Source: Escherichia coli
Lineage (GTDB): Bacteria > Pseudomonadota > Gammaproteobacteria > Enterobacterales > Enterobacteriaceae
Length of the DNA: 64,000 bases
NCBI RefSeq assembly: GCF_002854065.1
Contig: NZ_CP024147.1
Strand: one strand, 5' to 3'
Part shown: positions 1-35,089 of the stretch, one piece after another
Position numbering within the stretch: the first letter of the stretch is position 1
How the letters are laid out: every line of letters starts with the position of its first letter
Translations under genes and position numbers: made by a program
Notes under the pieces: generated by a model
Seen by the model: the letters and a program-made list of their open reading frames with translations, nothing else
The model's database searches: none
Told to the model about the DNA's origin: nothing

Positions 1-2271
1 GGCGTTATCACGACGCGCCATCTGGTTGCCTTCCGGCGTCCAGCTACCGGCGAAAATCCAGCAACCACAGGAGGTTGTACCGTCATCGCGCAGTTGGGCG
101 AACGAGCTAAGTTGTTGGCCTTTCTTGACGATAACCGCACCGGTTGCCGGATCGGTAATATCGGCCAGCGCCTTACCGTTGCTCTCCATCGCTACTTCTT
201 CCGACTTCGGCTCATGCGGAATGGCGTAGTTCCAGGTCATGTTCAGCACCTGGTCCGGGTTCGCGCCACCCTGTTCGGCATACATCTTGCGCAAGCGCAG
301 GAAGATACCGGAGAGGATCTCGCCGTCAGTCAGCGCAATCCCCGGGGCGTCCGCACCTTTCCAGTGCCACTGCAACCAGCGACCTGAGTTAACGATTGAA
401 CCGTTCTCTTCCGCGAAGCAGGTCGATGGCAGACGGAACACTTCGGTCTGGATCTTCGACGAGTCAACTTCGTTCAGCTCACCGTGGTTCTGCCAGAAGT
501 TAGAGGTTTCAGTGTTCAGCGGGTCGATGGTGACGAGGAACTTCAGTTTCGACAGACAACCGATCACTTTGTTTTTGTTCGGGAATGAGGCAACAGGGTT
601 AAAGCCCTGGCAGATATAGCCATTGACCTTGCCCTCTTTCATCATCTCGAAGTATTGTAGGACGTCGTAGCCTTTATCCCACTTCGGCAACCAGTCAAAG
701 CCCCAGCTATTTTCCGCCGTCGCTTTATCACCAAAGAAGGCCTTCATCATAGAGACGAAGAATTTCGGGTAGTTGCCCCAGTAGTTTACCTGGCCTTCCA
801 GCAGCGGTTTTGGCGTGTTGGCGGTAAGGTAGGTTTGCAGATCGGTCTGCTTCTCGCTTGGCAGCGTCATGTAACCTGGCAGGCTCTGCGACAGAAGGCC
901 CAGGTCCGTCAGCCCCTGAATATTGGAGTGACCGCGCAGGGCGTTAACGCCGCCGCCTGCCATCCCCATGTTGCCGAGCAGCAGCTGGATCATCGCCATC
1001 GTACGAATGTTTTGCGCACCAACGGAGTGTTGCGTCCAGCCGAGGGCATACAGGAACGAGGCAGTTTTATCGTGAGCACTGGTTTCTGCGATGTATTCGC
1101 AGACTTTCAGGAACGCGTCTTTTGGCGTACCACAGATGTTTTCAACCACATCTGGCGTGTAGCGGGAAACGTGCTGTTTCAGCAAGTTCCACACGCAGCG
1201 CGGATGTTGCAGCGTGGTATCGCGTTTGGCGAAGCCGTTTTCGTCCAGTTCGTAAGTCCAGGAGGATTTATCGTACTTGCGTTTTTCCGCGTCGTAGCCG
1301 GTGAACAGGCCATCTTCAAAGCCGTAATCCTCACGCACGATCAGGCTGGCGTTGGTATAGGCTTCGGTGTATTCGCGGTTGAATTTTTCATTGTTCAGCA
1401 GGTACAGCAATACGCCTGACAGGAAAGCAATGTCAGTACCGGAACGAATAGGGGCATAGTAGTCAGCTACCGCCGCCGTACGCGTAAAGCGAGGATCGAT
1501 CACAATCAGCTTCGCGCCATTGTGAATTTTGGCTTCCATCGCCCAGCGGAACCCGACCGGGTGAGCTTCAGCGGCGTTACCGCCCATCACCACGACGAGG
1601 TTGGCGTTCTTGATGTCGACCCAGTGGTTGGTCATCGCACCGCGACCAAATGTTGGAGCAAGACTTGCTACCGTTGGTCCGTGTCAGACACGCGCCTGGT
1701 TGTCGACCGCGAGCATACCCAGCGCGCGGGAGAATTTTTGCGTTAAATAGCCGGTTTCGTTACTCGACGCGGAAGCACACAGCATCCCGGTGGAGAGCCA
1801 GCGGTTAACAGTCACGCCTTCGGCGTTTTGCGCAATGTAGTTAGCATCGCGGTCTTCTTTCATCAGTTTGGCGATGCGATCAAACGCCTCTTCCCAACTG
1901 ATTTGCTGCCATTTATCAGAACCTGGCGCACGGTATTCCGGAAACTTCAGACGGCTTTCGGAGTGGATGAAATCCACCAGGCCAGCGCCTTTCGGACAAA
2001 GTGCACCGCGGTTGACCGGGTGATCCGGATCGCCTTCGATATGGAAGATAGATGCTTTGGCGTTTTTTGCTCCGTCACCGAGGCTGTACATCAACAGCCC
2101 ACAGCCTACGGAACAATAGGTGCAGGTATTACGGGTTTCGCGGGTGCGCAGCAGTTTATACTGCCGGGTTTCCGCGAGTGCTACGCTGGGTGCAAAACCC
2201 AGTGCCGCTGCCGTGGTGCCTGCCATACCGCCAGCGCAGATCTTAAAGAACTGCCTTCTGCTGACCTGCAT
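1..2271 (-). CDS. fdoG: Formate dehydrogenase-O major subunit (selenoprotein), partial; N-terminus at 2271, runs off window start
   Basis: N-terminal Tat motif MQVSRRQFFK; molybdopterin oxidoreductase-like sequence; in-frame TGA at 1684-1686 with the same frame staying open to position 1. Confidence 0.9.
1640..1686 (-). other. Selenocysteine UGA codon (1684-1686) plus predicted SECIS hairpin immediately 3' in the coding frame
   Basis: Frame continues ...VDNQARV-U-HGPTVASLAPTFGRG...; position matches the Sec site of FdoG/FdnG/FdhF-type enzymes; hairpin not folded computationally. Confidence 0.6.
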
Positions 2272-2464
2272 GGATTGCTCCTTGTTTCGACATTGTCACG
2301 TCCCATTTACATTCGCTTGCTGCGTGTGCAGGGAGTGGGAGTTATTTTTCTTTGCGGAAGGGGCCGCAAAGGTCCAGAATTGGCTCAATTTCCCTCCATC
2401 CAGGAAGGGTTTGTAACAGAATACCATAATGTTGGTGTGTGTGTTCTTATCTGGTTAAGAGAAA

Positions 2465-3298
2465 GTGAAAAAAACACAGCAAAAAGAAATCGAAAATGTG
2501 ACAAATATCACAGGTGTTCGTCAAATTGAGTTATGGCGGCGTGATGATTTACAACACCCACGGTTAGATGAGGTCGCGGAAGAAGTTCCCGTTGCGCTGG
2601 TCTACAACGGCATTTCGCATGTGGTGATGATGGCGTCGCCCAAAGACCTTGAGTACTTTGCGCTCGGTTTTTCGCTTTCCGAGGGGATAATAGAAAGTCC
2701 GCGCGATATCTTCGGCATGGATGTCGTTCCTTCCTGTAATGGTCTTGAAGTACAAATTGAGCTTTCCAGCCGCCGCTTTATGGGGTTGAAGGAGCGCCGC
2801 CGGGCGCTGGCGGGACGTACGGGCTGTGGCGTATGCGGCGTGGAGCAACTTAATGACATCGGAAAACCGGTGCAGCCGCTACCGTTCACCCAGACGTTTG
2901 ATCTCAACAAACTGGATGATGCATTACGTCATCTCAACGATTTTCAGCCAGTGGGGCAACTGACTGGTTGTACTCACGCCGCTGCCTGGATGTTGCCATC
3001 TGGCGAACTGGTCGGCGGGCATGAAGACGTGGGTCGCCATGTGGCGCTGGACAAACTGTTAGGCCGCCGGTCACAAGAAGGGGAAAGCTGGCAGCAAGGT
3101 GCGGTACTGGTTTCCAGTCGTGCCAGTTATGAAATGGTGCAAAAGTCGGCGATGTGCGGCGTAGAGATTTTGTTTGCGGTGTCTGCCGCGACCACGCTTG
3201 CTGTAGAAGTGGCTGAGCGCTGTAATCTGACACTGGTAGGTTTTTGTAAACCGGGTCGGGCAACGGTTTATACCCATCCGCAGCGTTTGAGCAATTAA
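2465..3298 (+). CDS. fdhD: Formate dehydrogenase accessory sulfurtransferase FdhD
   Basis: 277-aa ORF, divergent from fdoG, recognised FdhD sequence. Confidence 0.9.
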
Positions 3299-3303
3299 TT
3301 AAA

Positions 3304-3345
3304 ATAAGTCCTGCGATATATATTAAATTGCAGGACTTATTCATT
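3304..3345 (+). terminator. Inverted repeat after fdhD (ataagtcctgc...gcaggacttat), putative terminator
   Basis: Perfect 11-bp inverted repeat just 3' of the fdhD stop. Confidence 0.4.
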
Positions 3346-3450
3346 TCGTGAATTTTATTATTTTATTTATAAACAAAATGCGTGTAGTGGCGTTTTCTTT
3401 TTTCATTTATTATGTTCACTCTCTTATCTATATATTTATAAGGCAATTAA

Positions 3451-4506
3451 ATGAAAAGGAATTTATTATCTTCCGCTATTATAGTCGCCATCATGGCCCT
3501 CGGTCTGACGGGTTGTGATGATAAAAAAGCCGAAACAGAAACGCCCCCGCCTGCCAATAGTCAACCTGCCGCACCAGCTCCTGAAGCGAAACCTACTGAA
3601 GCTCCCGTTGCAAAAGCAGATGCTAAACCTGAAACACCTGCGCAACCGGTGGTCGATGAACAAGCGGTTTTCGACGAAAAAATGGATGTCTATATCAAGT
3701 GCTACAACAAGTTACAGATCCCTGTACAGAACAGTCTGGCGCGTTATGCTGACTGGCTGAAAGATTTTAAACAGGGGCCAACGGGTAAAGAGAGCCTTGT
3801 TTATGGCATCTACGGCATTAGTGAATCCAATCTCTCTGAGTGTCAAAAAGGAATAAAAAGAGTCGTGGCGTTAACGCCTGCGCTGCAACCTATTGATGGC
3901 GTGGCGGTGAGTTATATTGATGCTGCCGTGGCGTTGGGTAATACCATTAACGAAATGGATAAATATTACACCCAGGAAAATTATAAAGACGATGCGTTTG
4001 CGAAAGGGAAAACGCTGCACCAGACATTCTTAAAAAATCTGGAAGCCTTTGAACCTGTAGCAGAATCTTATCATGCGGCGATTCAGGAAATTAATGATAA
4101 GCGCCAGCTTGCGGAACTGAAAAATATTGAAGAAAGAGAAGGGAAAACATTCCACTACTACTCTCTGGCAGTCATGATTTCAGCGAAACAAATTAATAAC
4201 CTGATATCGCAAGAGAAGTTTGATGTTGATGCGGCAATGAAGAAAGTCTCTGAACTGGAAACGCTGGTAGCGCAGGCCAAAGAAGCGGATAAAGGCGGTA
4301 TGAATTTCTCGTTCATTAATTCGGCAGACCAGTATCAACTCGAGACTAAAAAATATGTTCGCCGCGTCAGAGATAAAGTCCCGTACTCTGACTGGGATAA
4401 AGAGCATCTTCAGGATGCAAACACAAGCTGGATGGTCGAAGACTCATTTCCACGAGCGTTACGCGAGTACAACGAAATGGTTGATGACTATAATAGCCTG
4501 CGTTAA
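3451..4506 (+). CDS. yiiG: Lipoprotein YiiG (lipobox LTGC, Pro/Ala-rich linker)
   Basis: 351-aa ORF with signal peptide and lipobox; K-12 synteny. Confidence 0.85.
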   Translation: MKRNLLSSAIIVAIMALGLTGCDDKKAETETPPPANSQPAAPAPEAKPTEAPVAKADAKPETPAQPVVDEQAVFDEKMDVYIKCYNKLQIPVQNSLARYADWLKDFKQGPTGKESLVYGIYGISESNLSECQKGIKRVVALTPALQPIDGVAVSYIDAAVALGNTINEMDKYYTQENYKDDAFAKGKTLHQTFLKNLEAFEPVAESYHAAIQEINDKRQLAELKNIEEREGKTFHYYSLAVMISAKQINNLISQEKFDVDAAMKKVSELETLVAQAKEADKGGMNFSFINSADQYQLETKKYVRRVRDKVPYSDWDKEHLQDANTSWMVEDSFPRALREYNEMVDDYNSLR

Positions 4507-4527
4507 ACGTTTTTGATGATAAATGCA

Positions 4528-4552
4528 GTGTCGGATGCGGCGCATCCGACAC
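4528..4552. terminator. Palindromic hairpin (gtgtcggatgcg/cgcatccgacac) between convergent yiiG and frvR remnant
   Basis: Inverted repeat seen directly. Confidence 0.4.
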
Positions 4553-4554
4553 AG

Positions 4555-4993
4555 TTCACCCCTTGTGAAGTAACTCCATAAATGCCTCATATCCTGTTAA
4601 CCCGGCAATAACTTCTGCCGGATGCTGACACAATACGCTTGCCAGATAGCTGAATATTTTTAGCTCATGACGCGCATCGGCGGCGGCGCAGGCGATCAAA
4701 ACATGGTTAATGACTTCGTTATTCACCTCAACTGATTGGGCGAGGGTAATAAAAAATCCACGAAAACGTCGCTCCTGTTCGCTCCAGCAATGTGGGATGG
4801 CGAGGCGATTAACAATCAGGTTTTCACCTTCGCCTTCGCGGGCGATGATCCGTTGCGCTTCATCGGCGGTAATATGGTGTTGTGCGACTAATTGCGCACA
4901 AATTTGCCGGGTAATATGTTGCCAGCTTTCACCGCGTACATTCGAATAATGAAAACTTCCGGGGGCAGAGAAAAAACGCTCCGGTTGCTGGCG
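4555..4993 (-). pseudogene. frvR: 3' remnant (146 codons) of PTS-regulator gene frvR, C-terminal EIIA-like domain (AIPH motif); 5' part replaced by IS1
   Basis: Manual minus-strand translation gives an open frame from the IS1 junction to a stop at 4555-4557: ...NLIVNRLAIPHCWSEQERRFRGFF...MELLHKG*; lies next to yiiG as frvR does in K-12. Confidence 0.6.
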
Positions 4994-5008
4994 GGTAATG
5001 ACTCCAAC

Positions 5009-5512
5009 TTATTGATAGTGTTTTATGTTCAGATAATGCCCGATGACTTTGTCATGCAGCTCCACCGATTTTGAGAACGACAGCGACTTCCGTCCCAGCC
5101 GTGCCAGGTGCTGCCTCAGATTCAGGTTATGCCGCTCAATTCGCTGCGTATATCGCTTGCTGATTACGTGCAGCTTTCCCTTCAGGCGGGATTCATACAG
5201 CGGCCAGCCATCCGTCATCCATATCACCACGTCAAAGGGTGACAGCAGGCTCATAAGACGCCCCAGCGTCGCCATAGTGCGTTCACCGAATACGTGCGCA
5301 ACAACCGTCTTCCGGAGCCTGTCATACGCGTAAAACAGCCAGCGCTGGCGCGATTTAGCCCCGACGTATCCCCACTGTTCGTCCATTTCCGCGCAGACGA
5401 TGACGTCACTGCCCGGCTGTATGCGCGAGGTTACCGACTGCGGCCTGAGTTTTTTAAATGGCGGAAAATCGTGTTGAGGCCAACGCCCATAATGCGGGCG
5501 GTTGCCCGGCAT
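5009..5512 (-). CDS. insB: IS1 transposase InsB frame (expressed as InsAB' by -1 frameshift)
   Basis: 167-aa [16 protein letters not shown]... identical to copy 2. Confidence 0.9.
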
Positions 5513-5706
5513 CCAACGCCATTCATGGCCATATCAATGATTTTCTGGTGCGTACCGGGTTGAGAAGCGGTGTAAGTGAACTGCAGTTGCCATGTTTTAC
5601 GGCAGTGAGAGCAGAGATAGCGCTGATGTCCGGCAGTGCTTTTGCCGTTACGCACCACCCCGTCAGTAGCTGAACAGGAGGGACAGCTGATAGAAACAGA
5701 AGCCAC
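5431..5706 (-). CDS. insA: IS1 InsA (transposition inhibitor / N-terminal part of transposase)
   Basis: 91-aa [26 protein letters not shown]... Confidence 0.9.
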
Positions 5707-5761
5707 TGGAGCACCTCAAAAACACCATCATACACTAAATCAGTAAGTTGGCAGCATCACC

Positions 5762-7063
5762 ATACGTCCCGAGGTAAATATTAAAGTTCTCCATATCCAT
5801 CACATTAGCGAACTGATAAGACGCATGAATGGTGTGAATGGTGTACGTCCCTTCATCATCAATCCAGCAGTCGTTATCACAAACTACACCGCTGAATTCA
5901 TCAATCTTATTGTGCGCGTAGATATAACCGAGCTCGAAACGTTTCCACAGCGCGTTAATCCCGGCAGTGAAATCTTTCTCATTATTAGCATCTAAATAGG
6001 CGGTATTAAGATTAACCACAATGCCATTGTCCGGATCCGTTTTCAGGCCGTTCCAGGTCATGCTCATACCATAGCCGGTACGATCGGACTGATCGACAAA
6101 ATTACCCTTGCTATCGGTATAACCATAAGCATTATTTACCACGTTCGCTTCCATCGCTGCGGAAACGGTGAATTCTTCCGTCGGCGACCAGGCAATTACT
6201 GGGCGCAGATAAGCAACATTTTTCTGCTGCTCCATATCGCGTCCATGATAATTACCGTCATTATATAAAGATGTTCCGTCTTCAAGTAACGTATTTAATT
6301 CAAAATACCAGTTATCGAGTTGTTTGCTGACGAGGAAATTACCGCCAGCGTTAGAGCGCCCGCGGCCCTCTTTCATCATATAGATATAACCGCTGCCATC
6401 GTCATAAAGATCGTTCGCAGTATTACCGGAATGTTCAACAAAGGTATCCTGATTCAGCGGGAACATATCGTAGGCTTCAAAACGGCCTACTTTGACCTTC
6501 CAGTCGTTTTCTTTGCCAAAGAAGAATACCGCATCATCGATATTTACTGAACCGTGCATATCACCCAGCGGTTGTGCGGAGAACCCGGCGAAATAACCGT
6601 TGTCCATCTTTCGCATACCGTCAAAACCTAACAGAATACGACCATTGAGATTCCACTGTTCATTAGTGGGATCGCTATTCACATCAGCGTTGGTCATTGC
6701 CAGCAGGCCATGATTACTTTCCGCATCCATATTAAATTCTACGTCGCCGTAGATTTTTAAATCGCCATAACCTGAAAGCAAAAGATTAGGTGAGGTGGCA
6801 TTTTTCTTTGCAGATTCCGTCGTTGCCTGTCCATTTACCGGCGTATTGCCCTGAGCGGCCTTAATTTCGCGGATCTCAGCGGCTTGTTGTGTCTGCAGCT
6901 GTTTAACCTGGCTCTCTGCTTTTGCTGCCCGCATTTCTGCCGCTTCCAGGCGTTCTTCCAGCAATGCCATGCGTTGTTCCAGCGTTAAATGCTGTGTTTT
7001 TGCCATACCGGTACTACATGCCAATAATAAACCGATGGCTAAAGATAATGTCGATTTTTTCAT
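5762..7063 (-). pseudogene. 5' part (434 codons) of a sugar-porin-like outer membrane protein gene, interrupted by IS1; the annotated ORF's last 8 codons (GDAANLLI*) come from the IS1 end
   Basis: Signal peptide MKKSTLSLAIGLLLACSTGMA, N-terminal coiled-coil (LEQRMALLEERLEAAEMRAAKAESQVKQLQ), then Gly/Tyr/Asn/Asp-rich sequence typical of beta-barrel glycoporins; ORF runs into the IS1 inverted repeat. Confidence 0.75.
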
Positions 7064-7540
7064 TATTTACGTTCCCTGAAATAAAGGAGGCCCTACGCTT
7101 TCCAAAAGGAATACGTATATAGAGAAATATAAAGTGTGCACTTTCGAATTTTTAATCCAACTTCAGCAGGCCGATGGATAGTATCCCGCCGCATAATATG
7201 AGTAAATCCGCTGATTTCCTGGAACGTGAGGAATATAACAATAGTGCCGTTTTTAACTAAATATCGTAAAAAATATTAGATATGATTCACGCTGACTCAT
7301 AAGCCACAAATATAAATAATGTTTAGACAAATTATCTGAGACATTTAAACATTCACAAAATCATTAAAGAATGATTTTTTATTCACAAGATTTATTTTAC
7401 CTACTAATATGTGCCTTACGCCGCAAAATTTATCCTTCACTCTGCTTTATATTGTCACGACTTCACGACATATCCGCGCTCATCACAAACCCGCCCCGCT
7501 ATTACAATTAACGTAAATATTTTTTCATGGAGTCCGATTA
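7064..7540. promoter_or_regulatory. AT-rich divergent intergenic region between porin gene and PTS EIIA-like gene; contains palindrome AATCATT-N4-AATGATT (7358-7375) flanked by attcacaa direct repeats
   Basis: Sequence inspection only; no promoter experimentally placed. Confidence 0.3.
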
Positions 7541-7694
7541 ATGGCAGCTCTTACTGCAAGCTGTATTGACCTGAATATTCAGGGCAATGGCACTTATTCC
7601 ATTCTGAAACAGTTAGCGACAATGGCGTTACAAAACGGTTTTATCACCGACTCACACCAGTTCCTGCAAACCCTGCTGCTGCGCGAAAAAATGC
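7541..7694 (+). pseudogene. 5' fragment (51 codons) of a PTS EIIA (fructose/mannitol-type) gene, possibly frvA, truncated by IS1 copy 2
   Basis: ATG at 7541 with GGAG upstream; MAALTASCIDLNIQGNGTYSILKQLATMALQNGFITDSHQFLQTLLLREKM resembles EIIA N-termini; frame stops inside the IS1 repeat. Confidence 0.5.
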
Positions 7695-7749
7695 GGTGAT
7701 GCTGCCAACTTACTGATTTAGTGTATGATGGTGTTTTTGAGGTGCTCCA

Positions 7750-8025
7750 GTGGCTTCTGTTTCTATCAGCTGTCCCTCCTGTTCAGCTACTGACGGGGTG
7801 GTGCGTAACGGCAAAAGCACTGCCGGACATCAGCGCTATCTCTGCTCTCACTGCCGTAAAACATGGCAACTGCAGTTCACTTACACCGCTTCTCAACCCG
7901 GTACGCACCAGAAAATCATTGATATGGCCATGAATGGCGTTGGATGCCGGGCAACCGCCCGCATTATGGGCGTTGGCCTCAACACGATTTTCCGCCATTT
8001 AAAAAACTCAGGCCGCAGTCGGTAA
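7750..8025 (+). CDS. insA: IS1 InsA
   Basis: 91-aa ORF identical to copy 1. Confidence 0.9.
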
Positions 8026-8447
8026 CCTCGCGCATACAGCCGGGCAGTGACGTCATCGTCTGCGCGGAAATGGACGAACAGTGGGGATACGTCGGGGCTA
8101 AATCGCGCCAGCGCTGGCTGTTTTACGCGTATGACAGGCTCCGGAAGACGGTTGTTGCGCACGTATTCGGTGAACGCACTATGGCGACGCTGGGGCGTCT
8201 TATGAGCCTGCTGTCACCCTTTGACGTGGTGATATGGATGACGGATGGCTGGCCGCTGTATGAATCCCGCCTGAAGGGAAAGCTGCACGTAATCAGCAAG
8301 CGATATACGCAGCGAATTGAGCGGCATAACCTGAATCTGAGGCAGCACCTGGCACGGCTGGGACGGAAGTCGCTGTCGTTCTCAAAATCGGTGGAGCTGC
8401 ATGACAAAGTCATCGGGCATTATCTGAACATAAAACACTATCAATAA
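7944..8447 (+). CDS. insB: IS1 transposase InsB frame
   Basis: 167-aa ORF identical to copy 1; A6C slippery motif ttaaaaaactc at about 7999-8009. Confidence 0.9.
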
Positions 8448-8462
8448 GTTGGAGTCATTACC

Positions 8463-9797: not shown

Positions 9798-10196
9798 TAG
9801 GCCGGATAAGGCGCTCGTGCCGCATCCGGCAATCAATGCCTGATGCGACGCTGTCGCGTCTTATCAGGCCTACAACTATTGCCGACCTGTAGGCCGGATA
9901 AGGCACTTGTGCCGCATCCGGCAATCAATGCCTGATGCGACGCTGTTGCGTCTTATCAGGCCTACAACTGTTGCCGACCTGTAGGCCGGATAAGGCACTT
10001 GTGCCGCATCCGGCAATCAATGCCTGATGCGACGCTGTCGCGTCTTATCAGGCCTACAACTATTGCCGACCTGTAGGCCGGATAAGGCACTTGTGCCGCA
10101 TCCGGCAATCAATGCCTGATGCGATGTCGCGTCTTATCAGGCCTACAACTGTTGCCGACCTGTAGGCCGGATAAGGCACTTGTGCCGCATCCGGCA
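9798..10196. repeat. BIME/REP array: about four tandem ~100-bp units, each with two REP palindromes
   Basis: Unit gtaggccggataaggcRctYgtgccgcatccggcaatcaatgcctgatgcgacgctgtYgcgtcttatcaggcctacaactRttgccgacct repeats head-to-tail with point differences. Confidence 0.85.
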
Positions 10197-18983: not shown

Positions 18984-19070
18984 TGTAGGCCTGATAAGAC
19001 GCTATCAGCGTCGCATCAGGCATCCTGCTCAAATGCCGGATGCGGCGTAAACGCCTTATCCTGCCTACAA
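18984..19070. repeat. REP/BIME element between yiiM and cpxA
   Basis: gtaggcctgataagacgc...gcgtcgcatcaggc and gccggatgcggcgtaaacgccttatcc palindromes. Confidence 0.6.
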
Positions 19071-24044: not shown

Positions 24045-24158
24045 AAATGCCTGATTCGCTTCGCTTATCAGGCCTACGTGAATTCTGCAATTTATTGAAT
24101 TTACAAACTTTTGTAGGCCGGATAAGGCGTTCGCGCCGCATCCGGCATTGATAAAGCG
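24045..24158. repeat. REP/BIME pair between pfkA and sbp
   Basis: Two REP palindromes separated by attctgcaatttattgaatttacaa. Confidence 0.6.
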
Positions 24159-26216: not shown

Positions 26217-26984
26217 TTAAGCCTGTTTAGCCGCTTCTGCAGCTTTAACGATTACTGCGAAGGCGTCAGCTTTCAGAGAAGCACCACCAACCAGCGCGCC
26301 GTCGATATCCGGCTGAGCAAACAGTTCTGCAGCGTTAGACGCGTTTACAGAGCCGCCGTACTGAATGATCACTTGTTCAGCGATGTTAGCGTCAACTTTA
26401 GCGATGTGGTCACGGATGAATTTGTGAACAGCCTGTGCCTGAGCCGGAGTTGCAGATTTGCCAGTACCGATTGCCCATACAGGTTCGTAAGCGATAACCG
26501 CACCTTCGAATGCCGCAGCACCCTGAGTTTTCAGTACCGCGTCGATCTGACGTGCGCAAACTTCTTCAGTTTTGCCCGCTTCGTTTTCAGCTTCGGTTTC
26601 ACCGATGCACAGAACCGGAGTCAGACCCTGCTCTTTCAGCACCGCGAATTTTTTCGCGATCAGTTCGTCAGACTCTTTGTGGTAAGTACGACGTTCAGAG
26701 TGGCCGATGATGATGTACTGTGCGCCGATGTCTTTCAGCATAGCAGCAGAGGTTTCACCGGTGAATGCGCCGGACAGGTTCAGGTCCACGTTTTGCGCAC
26801 CCAGCATGATGTGGCTGCCTTCAGCTTCACGCTTCGCCATATCGATGTACATTTCCGGTGGTGCGATTGCAACCGCACAGCCAGCAACACCTGCCAGCTC
26901 TTTACGCAGGTTAGAAACCAGCTCGTGAACCATGTGGCGGCTGCCGTTCAGTTTCCAGTTACCCATCACTAAAGGATGTCGCAT
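26217..26984 (-). CDS. tpiA: Triosephosphate isomerase
   Basis: 255-aa [17 protein letters not shown]... Confidence 0.95.
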
Positions 26985-27091
26985 TTTAATTCTCCACGCT
27001 TATAAGCGAATAAAGGAAGATGGCCGCCCCGCAGGGCAGCAGGTCTGTGAAACAGTATAGAGATTCATCGGCACAAAGGCTTTGCTTTTTG

Positions 27092-27691
27092 TCATTTATT
27101 CAAACCTTCAAGCGATTCAGATAGCGCCAGCTTAATCGGTTCAACAGCGAAGGTCAGCCCCTTTTCGCCGTTGTCCGCGACAACATAACGCAGTGCACCT
27201 TCTGTCTCGGTGTAATAACGTTTGTTTTTCCCCGCCGTTAGTAGCGACTGCAGTTTTTTCTGGCTTTGTGTTTTGGTCATTAATGGGGTGAGTGTGCGGA
27301 TCACCGCTGCCATATATTCCTGAGCTTTCGCTTTCGCGGCTTTTTGCTCTGGCCCCTGGATGGGTAGCCAGGTCATTTGAATGCTTTTGATTTTTAAGGT
27401 ACCGCGCTCCAGCGCTGTAGAAGCATACAAGTTCTCGTTAATTTTACTTGCAGCACGAGTGAGATTGGCTTTGTCGGGACTGCTGTCGATGGCACGAAAT
27501 TCGTTCAGTGGCAGGCTGGGATTCTGGCTGTTAAAGTCTTCTCGAAACTGGCTGATGGAGAGATCGAAAGTAGGGGCTCCAGCCAGCAGATAAGGCGCGG
27601 TCGTTGCCGTATCTGGTGTTTGTGCATGCGCCGTTGTTGTAACGGTTAATGCAGAACATAAGAGAAAAAACAGCGTACACCCTGGCTTCAT
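27092..27691 (-). CDS. yiiQ: Secreted protein YiiQ (DUF1454-like)
   Basis: 199-aa ORF with signal peptide. Confidence 0.85.
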   Translation of the reverse strand: MKPGCTLFFLLCSALTVTTTAHAQTPDTATTAPYLLAGAPTFDLSISQFREDFNSQNPSLPLNEFRAIDSSPDKANLTRAASKINENLYASTALERGTLKIKSIQMTWLPIQGPEQKAAKAKAQEYMAAVIRTLTPLMTKTQSQKKLQSLLTAGKNKRYYTETEGALRYVVADNGEKGLTFAVEPIKLALSESLEGLNK

Positions 27692-34375: not shown

Positions 34376-35089
34376 CTTCACTGTATTTTTAGCAGACAAC
34401 ATAATCTCCATCGCCTGTTGGCGATATTTATCTGCCGTATCTGGCTCCATTAATGCAATGATCCCCACAGCCCTGGGGGTGTCTTCAAGATAAACACTGA
34501 TGGTTCTTTTCTGCTGACCATCAAAATTTATCAACACATCCTGATACTTACAGGTGAAATGTTTGGCATTACAATCATGAAACTGGAAGGTTTCTTCATT
34601 GTATTGATCCTTGAGATTGTCTCGCTGCATCTTCTTTAACTCTTCCAGCGAGTCATCGGCGCTACGTCCTGCGGGCAGGCGGAAAGCAGAAATAAAGACG
34701 CTATTATCTTCACTTCTTATATCAATGGTTTTATCAGTACTAATAGAAACCGTATTCCAGTGTCGGTTTGGGACAGTCACGGAAATAGCTGCCTTCTCAA
34801 ACGTATAGTGCCACGGGGTGAACAGACGAAACGTATTGCCGACGTTGGATAAAAGCAGGACTCCCAATACCCAACAGTACCCGCGAGTAAAACTGGCGAA
34901 GTTACGCGTTTTTTTAGTGAATGTGCACAGAATACCTGACACAAGCACGGGAAGTAATAACGGCCCAAGAAGTACTGAACCGATATACTCGCCAACCATC
35001 CCAGGATCTCCAGTAAGCAAGTTACTGTGCTGAAGATGACTAAGAAAAATAGTTATTATCCATAGTATTAATAAGATAACGTATCTCAT
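34373..35089 (-). CDS. Hypothetical membrane protein, island gene 2 (238 aa; three predicted N-terminal TM helices plus ~140-aa C-terminal domain); paralog of the upstream ORF
   Basis: Long ORF in an AT-rich insert; shares motifs with 35122-35808 (KKtR..F.RG.CW..G..L, YTF, TVTVP, DPD..D.Y..E.M..MLSA). Confidence 0.6.
   Translation of the reverse strand: MRYVILLILWIITIFLSHLQHSNLLTGDPGMVGEYIGSVLLGPLLLPVLVSGILCTFTKKTRNFASFTRGYCWVLGVLLLSNVGNTFRLFTPWHYTFEKAAISVTVPNRHWNTVSISTDKTIDIRSEDNSVFISAFRLPAGRSADDSLEELKKMQRDNLKDQYNEETFQFHDCNAKHFTCKYQDVLINFDGQQKRTISVYLEDTPRAVGIIALMEPDTADKYRQQAMEIMLSAKNTVK

Follow-up and report, generated by a model that had tools for sequence, protein, structure and literature searches.

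The TGA at 1686..1684 on the minus strand of the sequence analysed here is, with a probability of about 0.97, a selenocysteine (Sec) codon followed on its 3' side by a SECIS element, in fdoG, the gene for the catalytic subunit of the respiratory formate dehydrogenase-O. The sequence is a 64-kb stretch of E. coli DNA, which we call the window. It is textbook biology that SelB recodes UGA in FdhF, FdnG and FdoG with the help of tRNA-Sec and a SECIS hairpin, and the selenocysteine codon and SECIS of fdoG are themselves already known, with an existing Rfam family and reference annotations that include them. What the result means is a point of annotation only: gene callers unaware of selenocysteine split fdoG, and once the SECIS is recognised the catalytic subunit of 1016 aa stays whole. 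Two comparisons that arose along the way, between Sec and Cys orthologues as a natural control and between paralogues with frozen synonymous sites, illustrate known principles and raise no new question.

The fdoG gene and its surroundings

Translation of 2271..1 on the minus strand gives a reading frame that starts with an ATG at 2271 and stays open to the edge of the window, with 757 codons and one stop only, at codon 196. This is the 5' three-quarters of the gene for the formate dehydrogenase-O alpha subunit (1..2271, minus strand; codons 1-757 of 1016), which runs past the left edge of the window. The encoded protein has an Fe4S4 domain at residues 44-103 (PF04879) and a molybdopterin oxidoreductase domain at residues 107-589 (PF00384), the domain make-up of the catalytic subunit of a Mo/W bis-MGD formate dehydrogenase. 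The C-terminal molybdopterin dinucleotide-binding domain of FdoG lies past the window edge, outside the sequence read. The equivalog model TIGR01553 ('formate dehydrogenase-N subunit alpha') matches residues 2-756 of the window protein with 1161 bits (cutoff 814), and the solved chain of E. coli FdnG (1kqf_A) aligns with residues 1-757 without a break (E = 0).

E. coli carries two such genes. The first 2400 bases of the window have a match in 5425 of 5426 complete E. coli genomes, with at least 99% identity in 3767 records. The median number of matching places is two per genome, corresponding to the two paralogues. The window copy has 99.1% nucleotide identity to K-12 fdoG (b3894), from which its protein differs by a single amino acid (K689 in the window, S in K-12), and only 75.7% nucleotide and 78.3% amino-acid identity to K-12 fdnG (b1474). 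Upstream of it, in divergent orientation, lies fdhD (2465..3298, plus strand), an open reading frame of 277 aa at a position where fdhD is annotated in three E. coli genomes; we take its product to be an accessory sulfurtransferase for formate dehydrogenase maturation. Downstream of fdoG, both in strains that match the query perfectly and in K-12, come fdoH, fdoI and fdhE, giving the order fdhD <> fdoG-fdoH-fdoI-fdhE. The flanking arrangement described for the fdo genes is the same, with fdhD on one side and fdoH, fdoI and fdhE on the other (PMC3160892).

On gene order and near-identity we therefore identify the gene at 1-2271 (minus strand) as fdoG of the E. coli fdo operon and not its paralogue fdnG, in agreement with the name that the initial annotation had given it. 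In most genomes the PGAP label for this gene is 'fdnG'. We considered that identity and ruled it out on the synteny and on the near-identity to b3894; the label derives from TIGR01553, a shared NCBIfam equivalog that is named after formate dehydrogenase-N.

Elsewhere in the window, a gene for a RafY-like glycoporin lies between two identical copies of IS1 that are inverted relative to each other. Compared with a close strain, this region has lost frvABX and part of frvR. Between rhaA and rhaD there is a cluster of naRNA4/REP-type repeats, and the window contains other routine Rfam matches.

The SECIS hairpin

Scanning the window with Rfam models gave a single SECIS match, to SECIS_3 (RF01989), at 1689..1631 on the minus strand. 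The match covers the full length of the model (positions 1-59 of 59), includes the UGA and scores 84.3 bits against a gathering threshold of 63, with an E-value of 1.1e-20 locally and 1.4e-18 over the whole window. The UGA stands immediately 5' of the hairpin, within the coding sequence and at the position that homologues fill with Sec or Cys.

The sequence 1686..1640 folds into one hairpin of -13.8 kcal/mol, and the minimum-free-energy (MFE) and centroid structures are identical. In the MFE fold the complete hairpin, lower and apical helix together, occupies 1641..1681 (minus strand). Its apical stem-loop, GGUAGCAAGUCUUGCUCC (1655..1672, minus strand), spans nucleotides 15-32 counted from the U of UGA and is, judging from sequence and fold, the probable SelB-binding part. 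The stem is built from the pairs G15-C32, G16-C31, A18-U30, G19-C29, C20-G28, A21-U27 and A22-U26, with U17 bulged out and G23-U24-C25 in the loop. In E. coli the upper stem-loop of a SECIS is placed 11 nt from the UGA and carries a bulged U17 and the apical-loop bases G23 and U24 (PMC8659212). The fdoG stem-loop likewise starts 11 nt 3' of the UGA, and the three key bases fall at 1670 (U17), 1664 (G23) and 1663 (U24) in the window.

The stability of the hairpin is unremarkable. Compared with shuffled sequences its folding energy is not significant, with z = -1.6 for the 47-mer, where 9 of 200 shuffles were as good, and z = -0.77 for the 59-mer. Folding energy was consequently dropped as a test of the hairpin, and folding alone would not have found this SECIS. 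Short SECIS elements are not defined by their stability, and an ordinary value does not affect the membership of this one. As the stability is not significant, the significance of the element rests on the model score, conservation and covariation.

To assess conservation and covariation, we scanned one genome from each species with the DNA pattern GCNCGNGTNTGHCAYGGNCCNACNGT, which allowed TGA, TGC or TGT at the codon of interest and returned at least 120 loci. Since most of columns 1-20 were fixed in the pattern, the 5' arm and U17 are conserved in part by construction. The pattern left columns 21-59, with the loop and the complete 3' arm, free. All 120 matches listed are in frame with ARV-[U/C]-HGPTV...FGRGAMTN. 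The codon equivalent to codon 196 is TGA in 116 of them, Cys (TGT/TGC) in 4 and nothing else. Among the matches listed, those with TGA come from Proteobacteria, Acidobacteria, Actinomycetota and Desulfobacterota, and the Cys-codon loci seen by name are from Vogesella and Snodgrassella. The window's own 59-mer recurs in at least 22 other loci from several genera of Enterobacterales.

Eight of ten phylogenetically spread Sec-type loci match SECIS_3 at the Rfam gathering threshold, compared with none of the four Cys-type loci at the same threshold. Both Sec-type loci without a match belong to the Desulfovibrionaceae, where the downstream sequence differs; presumably they form another type of SECIS.

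The 116 Sec-type loci among the matches listed, taken together with the window, gave 72 distinct 59-mers. Across these the apical helix is 97.8% paired, and compensatory double changes occur in four of its seven pairs. Pair 24-30, for example, is A-U in 41 sequences, C-G in 27 and G-C in 2, and pair 21-33 is G-C in 50, A-U in 9 and C-G in 6. Over the whole structure pairing reaches 90-91%, and sliding the 3' partners lowers it to 28-57%. The covariation score of 0.23-0.25 exceeds the 0.12-0.13 of shuffled alignments, none of which reached the observed value in 500 attempts, and RNAalifold independently recovers the apical stem. Of the loop bases, U24 does not vary across the 72 sequences and G23 reaches at least 90% conservation, both in columns left free by the search pattern; the invariance of U17, which the pattern fixed, is not informative.

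The lower helix is less regular. It is 84-85% paired over the 72 sequences and has two alternative registers, that of Rfam and that of the MFE fold, which lie one base apart. In E. coli the Rfam register contains two non-canonical pairs, A8·C48 and A12·G44, when paired by hand (the cmscan alignment marks none). Over the 72 sequences this register has 8-48 as A-U in only 34 and unpaired in 38, and 12-44 as C-G or U-G in 49 and unpaired in 23. Overall the MFE register is not an improvement; in it only 21 of the 72 sequences pair 12 with 45. The alignment thus appears to support both registers about equally, and the identification is unaffected by the choice. Lower-stem pairing has been found to be of only modest importance in E. 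coli SECIS elements (PMC8659212). The two registers could fit a structure that must breathe as the ribosome nears, a reading that we rate as unlikely.

The explanation that survives best against a SECIS, though we think it very improbable, is that the hairpin merely follows from conservation of the peptide HGPTVASLAPTFGRG, without selection on the RNA, and that the UGA is read through in some other way. In its favour, the peptide shows strong conservation, and the hairpin is not significantly more stable than shuffled sequences. Against it, the synonymous sites are frozen, with 71 identical nucleotides shared by fdoG and fdnG here, while gene-wide only 57.8% of codons for identical amino acids match. 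Paired columns also covary, even where the amino acids encoded on both arms change jointly, as in VASLAP, VAGLAP and VSSLGP. The Cys-type orthologues keep a similar peptide (HGPTVSALAS/ATFGRG) with neither a SECIS_3 match nor the G-U loop bases, and published data on a selC mutant show that activity needs tRNA-Sec (PMC3160892). This pattern argues that selection acts on the RNA structure of the fdoG SECIS.

A SECIS hairpin directly 3' of the UGA had been expected in the initial annotation, which proposed folding it and comparing it with the elements of fdhF and fdnG. The expectation holds: the fold gives one hairpin, which scores 84.3 bits on SECIS_3 against the required 63 and is supported by covariation, its 59 nt are identical to those of fdnG, and U17 and G23/U24 are placed as in fdhF.

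The UGA codon and its decoding

Around codon 196 (1684..1686, minus strand) the minus strand reads ...GCG CGT GTC TGA CAC GGA CCA ACG GTA GCA AGT CTT GCT CCA ACA TTT GGT CGC GGT..., which translates locally as ...VDNQARV*HGPTVASLAPTFGRG.... With the UGA decoded as selenocysteine the peptide would be ...ARV-U-HGPTVASLAPTFGR. On sequence and homology this codon probably specifies the residue at the catalytic Mo ligand position, as the literature suggests. It aligns with a non-standard residue, printed X, in three solved formate dehydrogenases: residue 196 of E. coli FdnG (1kqf_A), residue 158 of the D. gigas enzyme (1h0h_A) and residue 192 of the D. vulgaris enzyme (6sdr_A), the last described by its depositors as 'selenocysteine-containing'.

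The initial annotation had placed the TGA at 1684-1686, after the peptide VDNQARV, in a frame open to the window edge, and direct reading and translation confirm each of these points. It had also warned that a naive ORF caller would split the gene here, and the mechanical ORF list does so, ending an ORF of 195 aa (1684..2271) at the TGA of codon 196. Its suggestion that the Sec position be checked against homologues is answered by the X of 1kqf_A, 1h0h_A and 6sdr_A and by the 116 TGA and 4 Cys codons among the 120 matches listed. Two outcomes had been named that would speak against it, namely that the TGA is a genuine stop or that the aligned residue is neither Sec nor Cys; we looked for both, and neither arose.

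A genuine stop would make two abutting genes of fdoG, one encoding a 195-aa protein and the other a downstream protein. Table 11 normally reads UGA as a stop, and the mechanical list does end its ORF at 1684, but this reading is even less probable than a hairpin owed to the peptide. PF00384 (107-589) and TIGR01553 (2-756) both run across the TGA, as does the unbroken alignment of the solved FdnG chain over residues 1-757. The sequence after the TGA has no start codon or ribosome-binding context, and four orthologues among the matches listed have a sense Cys codon at this position. The K-12 annotation has one CDS across the TGA, and in the reference annotations it is a single CDS of 3051 nt.

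Least probable of all is a nonsense mutation or sequencing error in a pseudogene copy, which has the in-frame stop itself and nothing else in its favour. Against it, 5418 of 5433 E. coli records show at least 99% identity over the 141 nt around the TGA (with a match in 5425 of 5426 genomes). The TGA occurs in 116 of the 120 orthologues listed, from several phyla, and the remaining frame is intact, with one amino-acid difference from K-12.

The reading of codon 196 as selenocysteine fits with what is known of the species. E. coli makes exactly three selenopolypeptides, FdnG, FdoG and FdhF, and the fdoG product is the one of 110 kDa (PMC4009273). No tRNA gene was found in the 64-kb window; selC, the gene for tRNA-Sec (anticodon UCA), lies outside it, is annotated in K-12, and 5424 of 5426 E. 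coli genomes have it. In a selC mutant the activity of Fdh-N/O is absent (PMC3160892). Other Proteobacteria have fdoGHI-selABC clusters (PMC8124441), and in line with this, the tRNA-Sec gene and the SECIS of one Mesorhizobium locus are about 9 kb apart.

By analogy with fdhF and fdnG, the UGA at codon 196 of the fdoG mRNA would be recoded as selenocysteine under the direction of the SECIS hairpin lying just 3' of it, within the reading frame. A complex of SelB·GTP·Sec-tRNA(Sec), the tRNA being the product of selC, would bind the apical loop through the C-terminal domain of SelB. As the UGA arrives, SelB would deliver Sec-tRNA(Sec) to the ribosomal A site and outcompete release factor 2 (RF2). 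The resulting Sec196 is likely to be the Mo ligand in the bis-MGD active site. For SelB binding and dependence, for selenium incorporation and for the role of Sec196 at the Mo, this picture draws on the literature on fdhF and fdnG.

Comparison with Cys-type orthologues, fdnG and fdhF

The Cys-type FdnG/FdoG orthologues of Vogesella and Snodgrassella resemble fdoG in having the active-site motif ARV-[C]-HGPTV...FGRGAMTN in the same frame. They differ from it in their TGT or TGC codon and in having neither a SECIS_3 match nor a GU-containing apical loop. To judge from these sequences they act as a natural negative control for the SECIS.

The closest known element is the SECIS of E. coli fdnG (RF01989). 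The two are identical over 59 nt, both score 84.3 bits, and both follow a Sec codon at position 196. They differ only in the host gene: fdoG lies beside fdhD and fdhE and is 78% identical to fdnG in amino acids and 75.7% in nucleotides. Identity between the genes continues beyond the element, in a perfect run of 71 nt (1619..1689, minus strand) that begins three bases before the UGA and covers both UGA and SECIS. This is the longest such run, the next longest being 30 nt, in a pair of genes that use the same codon for only 57.8% of their identical amino acids. Nucleotide conservation at the SECIS thus seems to exceed the apparent need of a minimal 17-nt SECIS together with the protein sequence. 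The long identity might reflect recurrent gene conversion confined to the SECIS; alternatively, the lower stem and 3' flank might make additional contacts, or act in regulation, to set the efficiency of Sec insertion. We consider either origin unlikely.

The SECIS of fdhF, where Sec is residue 140 of the protein, is the experimentally dissected prototype. It belongs to a sister family, SECIS_2 (RF01988), on which it scores 87.1 bits, whereas the fdoG element reaches only 28.1 bits on that model, against a gathering threshold of 70. The lower stems differ in sequence, and in fdoG one possible extra A-U pair in the apical stem would leave a GUC triloop (or an AGUCU pentaloop), compared with the GGUC tetraloop of fdhF. 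The two elements are nonetheless alike in the features by which an E. coli SECIS is recognised. In both, the UGA is followed by CACGG..., the apical stem begins at nucleotide 15 with G15 and G16, and the bulged U17 and the loop bases G23 and U24 stand at the same distances from the UGA.

IS1 elements and the frv/rha interval

The window carries two IS1 copies of 768 bp, at 4994-5761 and 7695-8462, which lie in inverted orientation relative to each other, are 100% complementary and are spaced 1933 nt apart. Compared with E. coli strain 100416 and K-12, the window is without frvA, frvB, frvX and most of frvR. The frvR gene is interrupted at about 4993/4994: the stretch 1-4993 stops within it and the first IS1 starts there. 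A third strain, CUWW06, whose fdoG is identical to that of the window, has a different IS1-associated deletion here, with loss of the rha genes. The frv/rha interval appears to be a hot spot for IS1 rearrangement.

The segment between the two copies (5762-7694) is inverted in orientation relative to strain 100416, an arrangement that looks like an IS1-mediated inversion. It carries an intact ORF of 442 amino acids (5735..7063, minus strand), which matches Pfam Porin_8, a RafY-like glycoporin, with E = 6e-145. This gene is intact in the window, whereas in strain 100416 it is cut short by an IS1.

Strain 100416 also has an IS1 at 26449-27216 of its locus L005, where it is flanked by two hypothetical genes in the vicinity of rraA and zapB. 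The corresponding position in the window, about 34969-34977, has no IS1. The alignments flanking this insertion overlap by 9 bp, as fits a target-site duplication in strain 100416.

Repeats and other Rfam matches

Rfam identified four tandem copies of naRNA4 (CssrE, REP/BIME-type) in the rhaA-rhaD intergenic region (9800-10143, plus strand), which are seen as an imperfect internal repeat of about 320 bp when the window is compared with itself. One further copy lies at 18988-19065 on the minus strand. The other matches, at the gathering threshold, were a ClpQY (hslVU) promoter element (39296-39353, minus strand), the L31 ribosomal-protein leader that precedes rpmE (43965-44017, plus strand) and two sRNA-like ES036 (CssrF) elements (24070-24111, minus strand; 44997-45038, plus strand). 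All four are to be expected in this region of E. coli.

FdoG and its orthologues

Five of the mismatches between fdoG and its K-12 counterpart are packed into 7 nt (window 202-208; fdoG nt 2064-2070) at codon 689, and produce the sole amino acid difference, a lysine in the window and a serine in K-12. The remaining 16 differences over the 2271 nt are silent and scattered. Codons 1-33 (2173-2271, minus strand) encode the N-terminus MQVSRRQFFKICAGGMAGTTAAALGFAPSVALA, with a twin-arginine signal-like motif (S-R-R-x-F-F-K). This motif agrees with the published statement that the catalytic subunit of Fdh-O is periplasmic (PMC3160892). A Pfam search of FdoG gave no TAT-signal match at E = 0.001.

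Two orthologous loci from Desulfovibrionaceae, one in Ca. Desulfovibrio gallistercoris (L034) and one in Mailhella sp. (L068), keep the in-frame TGA, and the sequence just 3' of it differs (GUACCGGCUCUGGCAGAG). As both fell below the gathering score of SECIS_3, the Rfam model that matches the fdoG hairpin, in the model search, they presumably carry another SECIS type. In a Mesorhizobium sp. (locus L066), a tRNA-Sec gene (2447-2538, minus strand; Rfam RF01852, 74.5 bits) and an fdoG-type SECIS lie about 9 kb apart in one locus. This proximity fits the fdoGHI-selABC clusters that have been described (PMC8124441).
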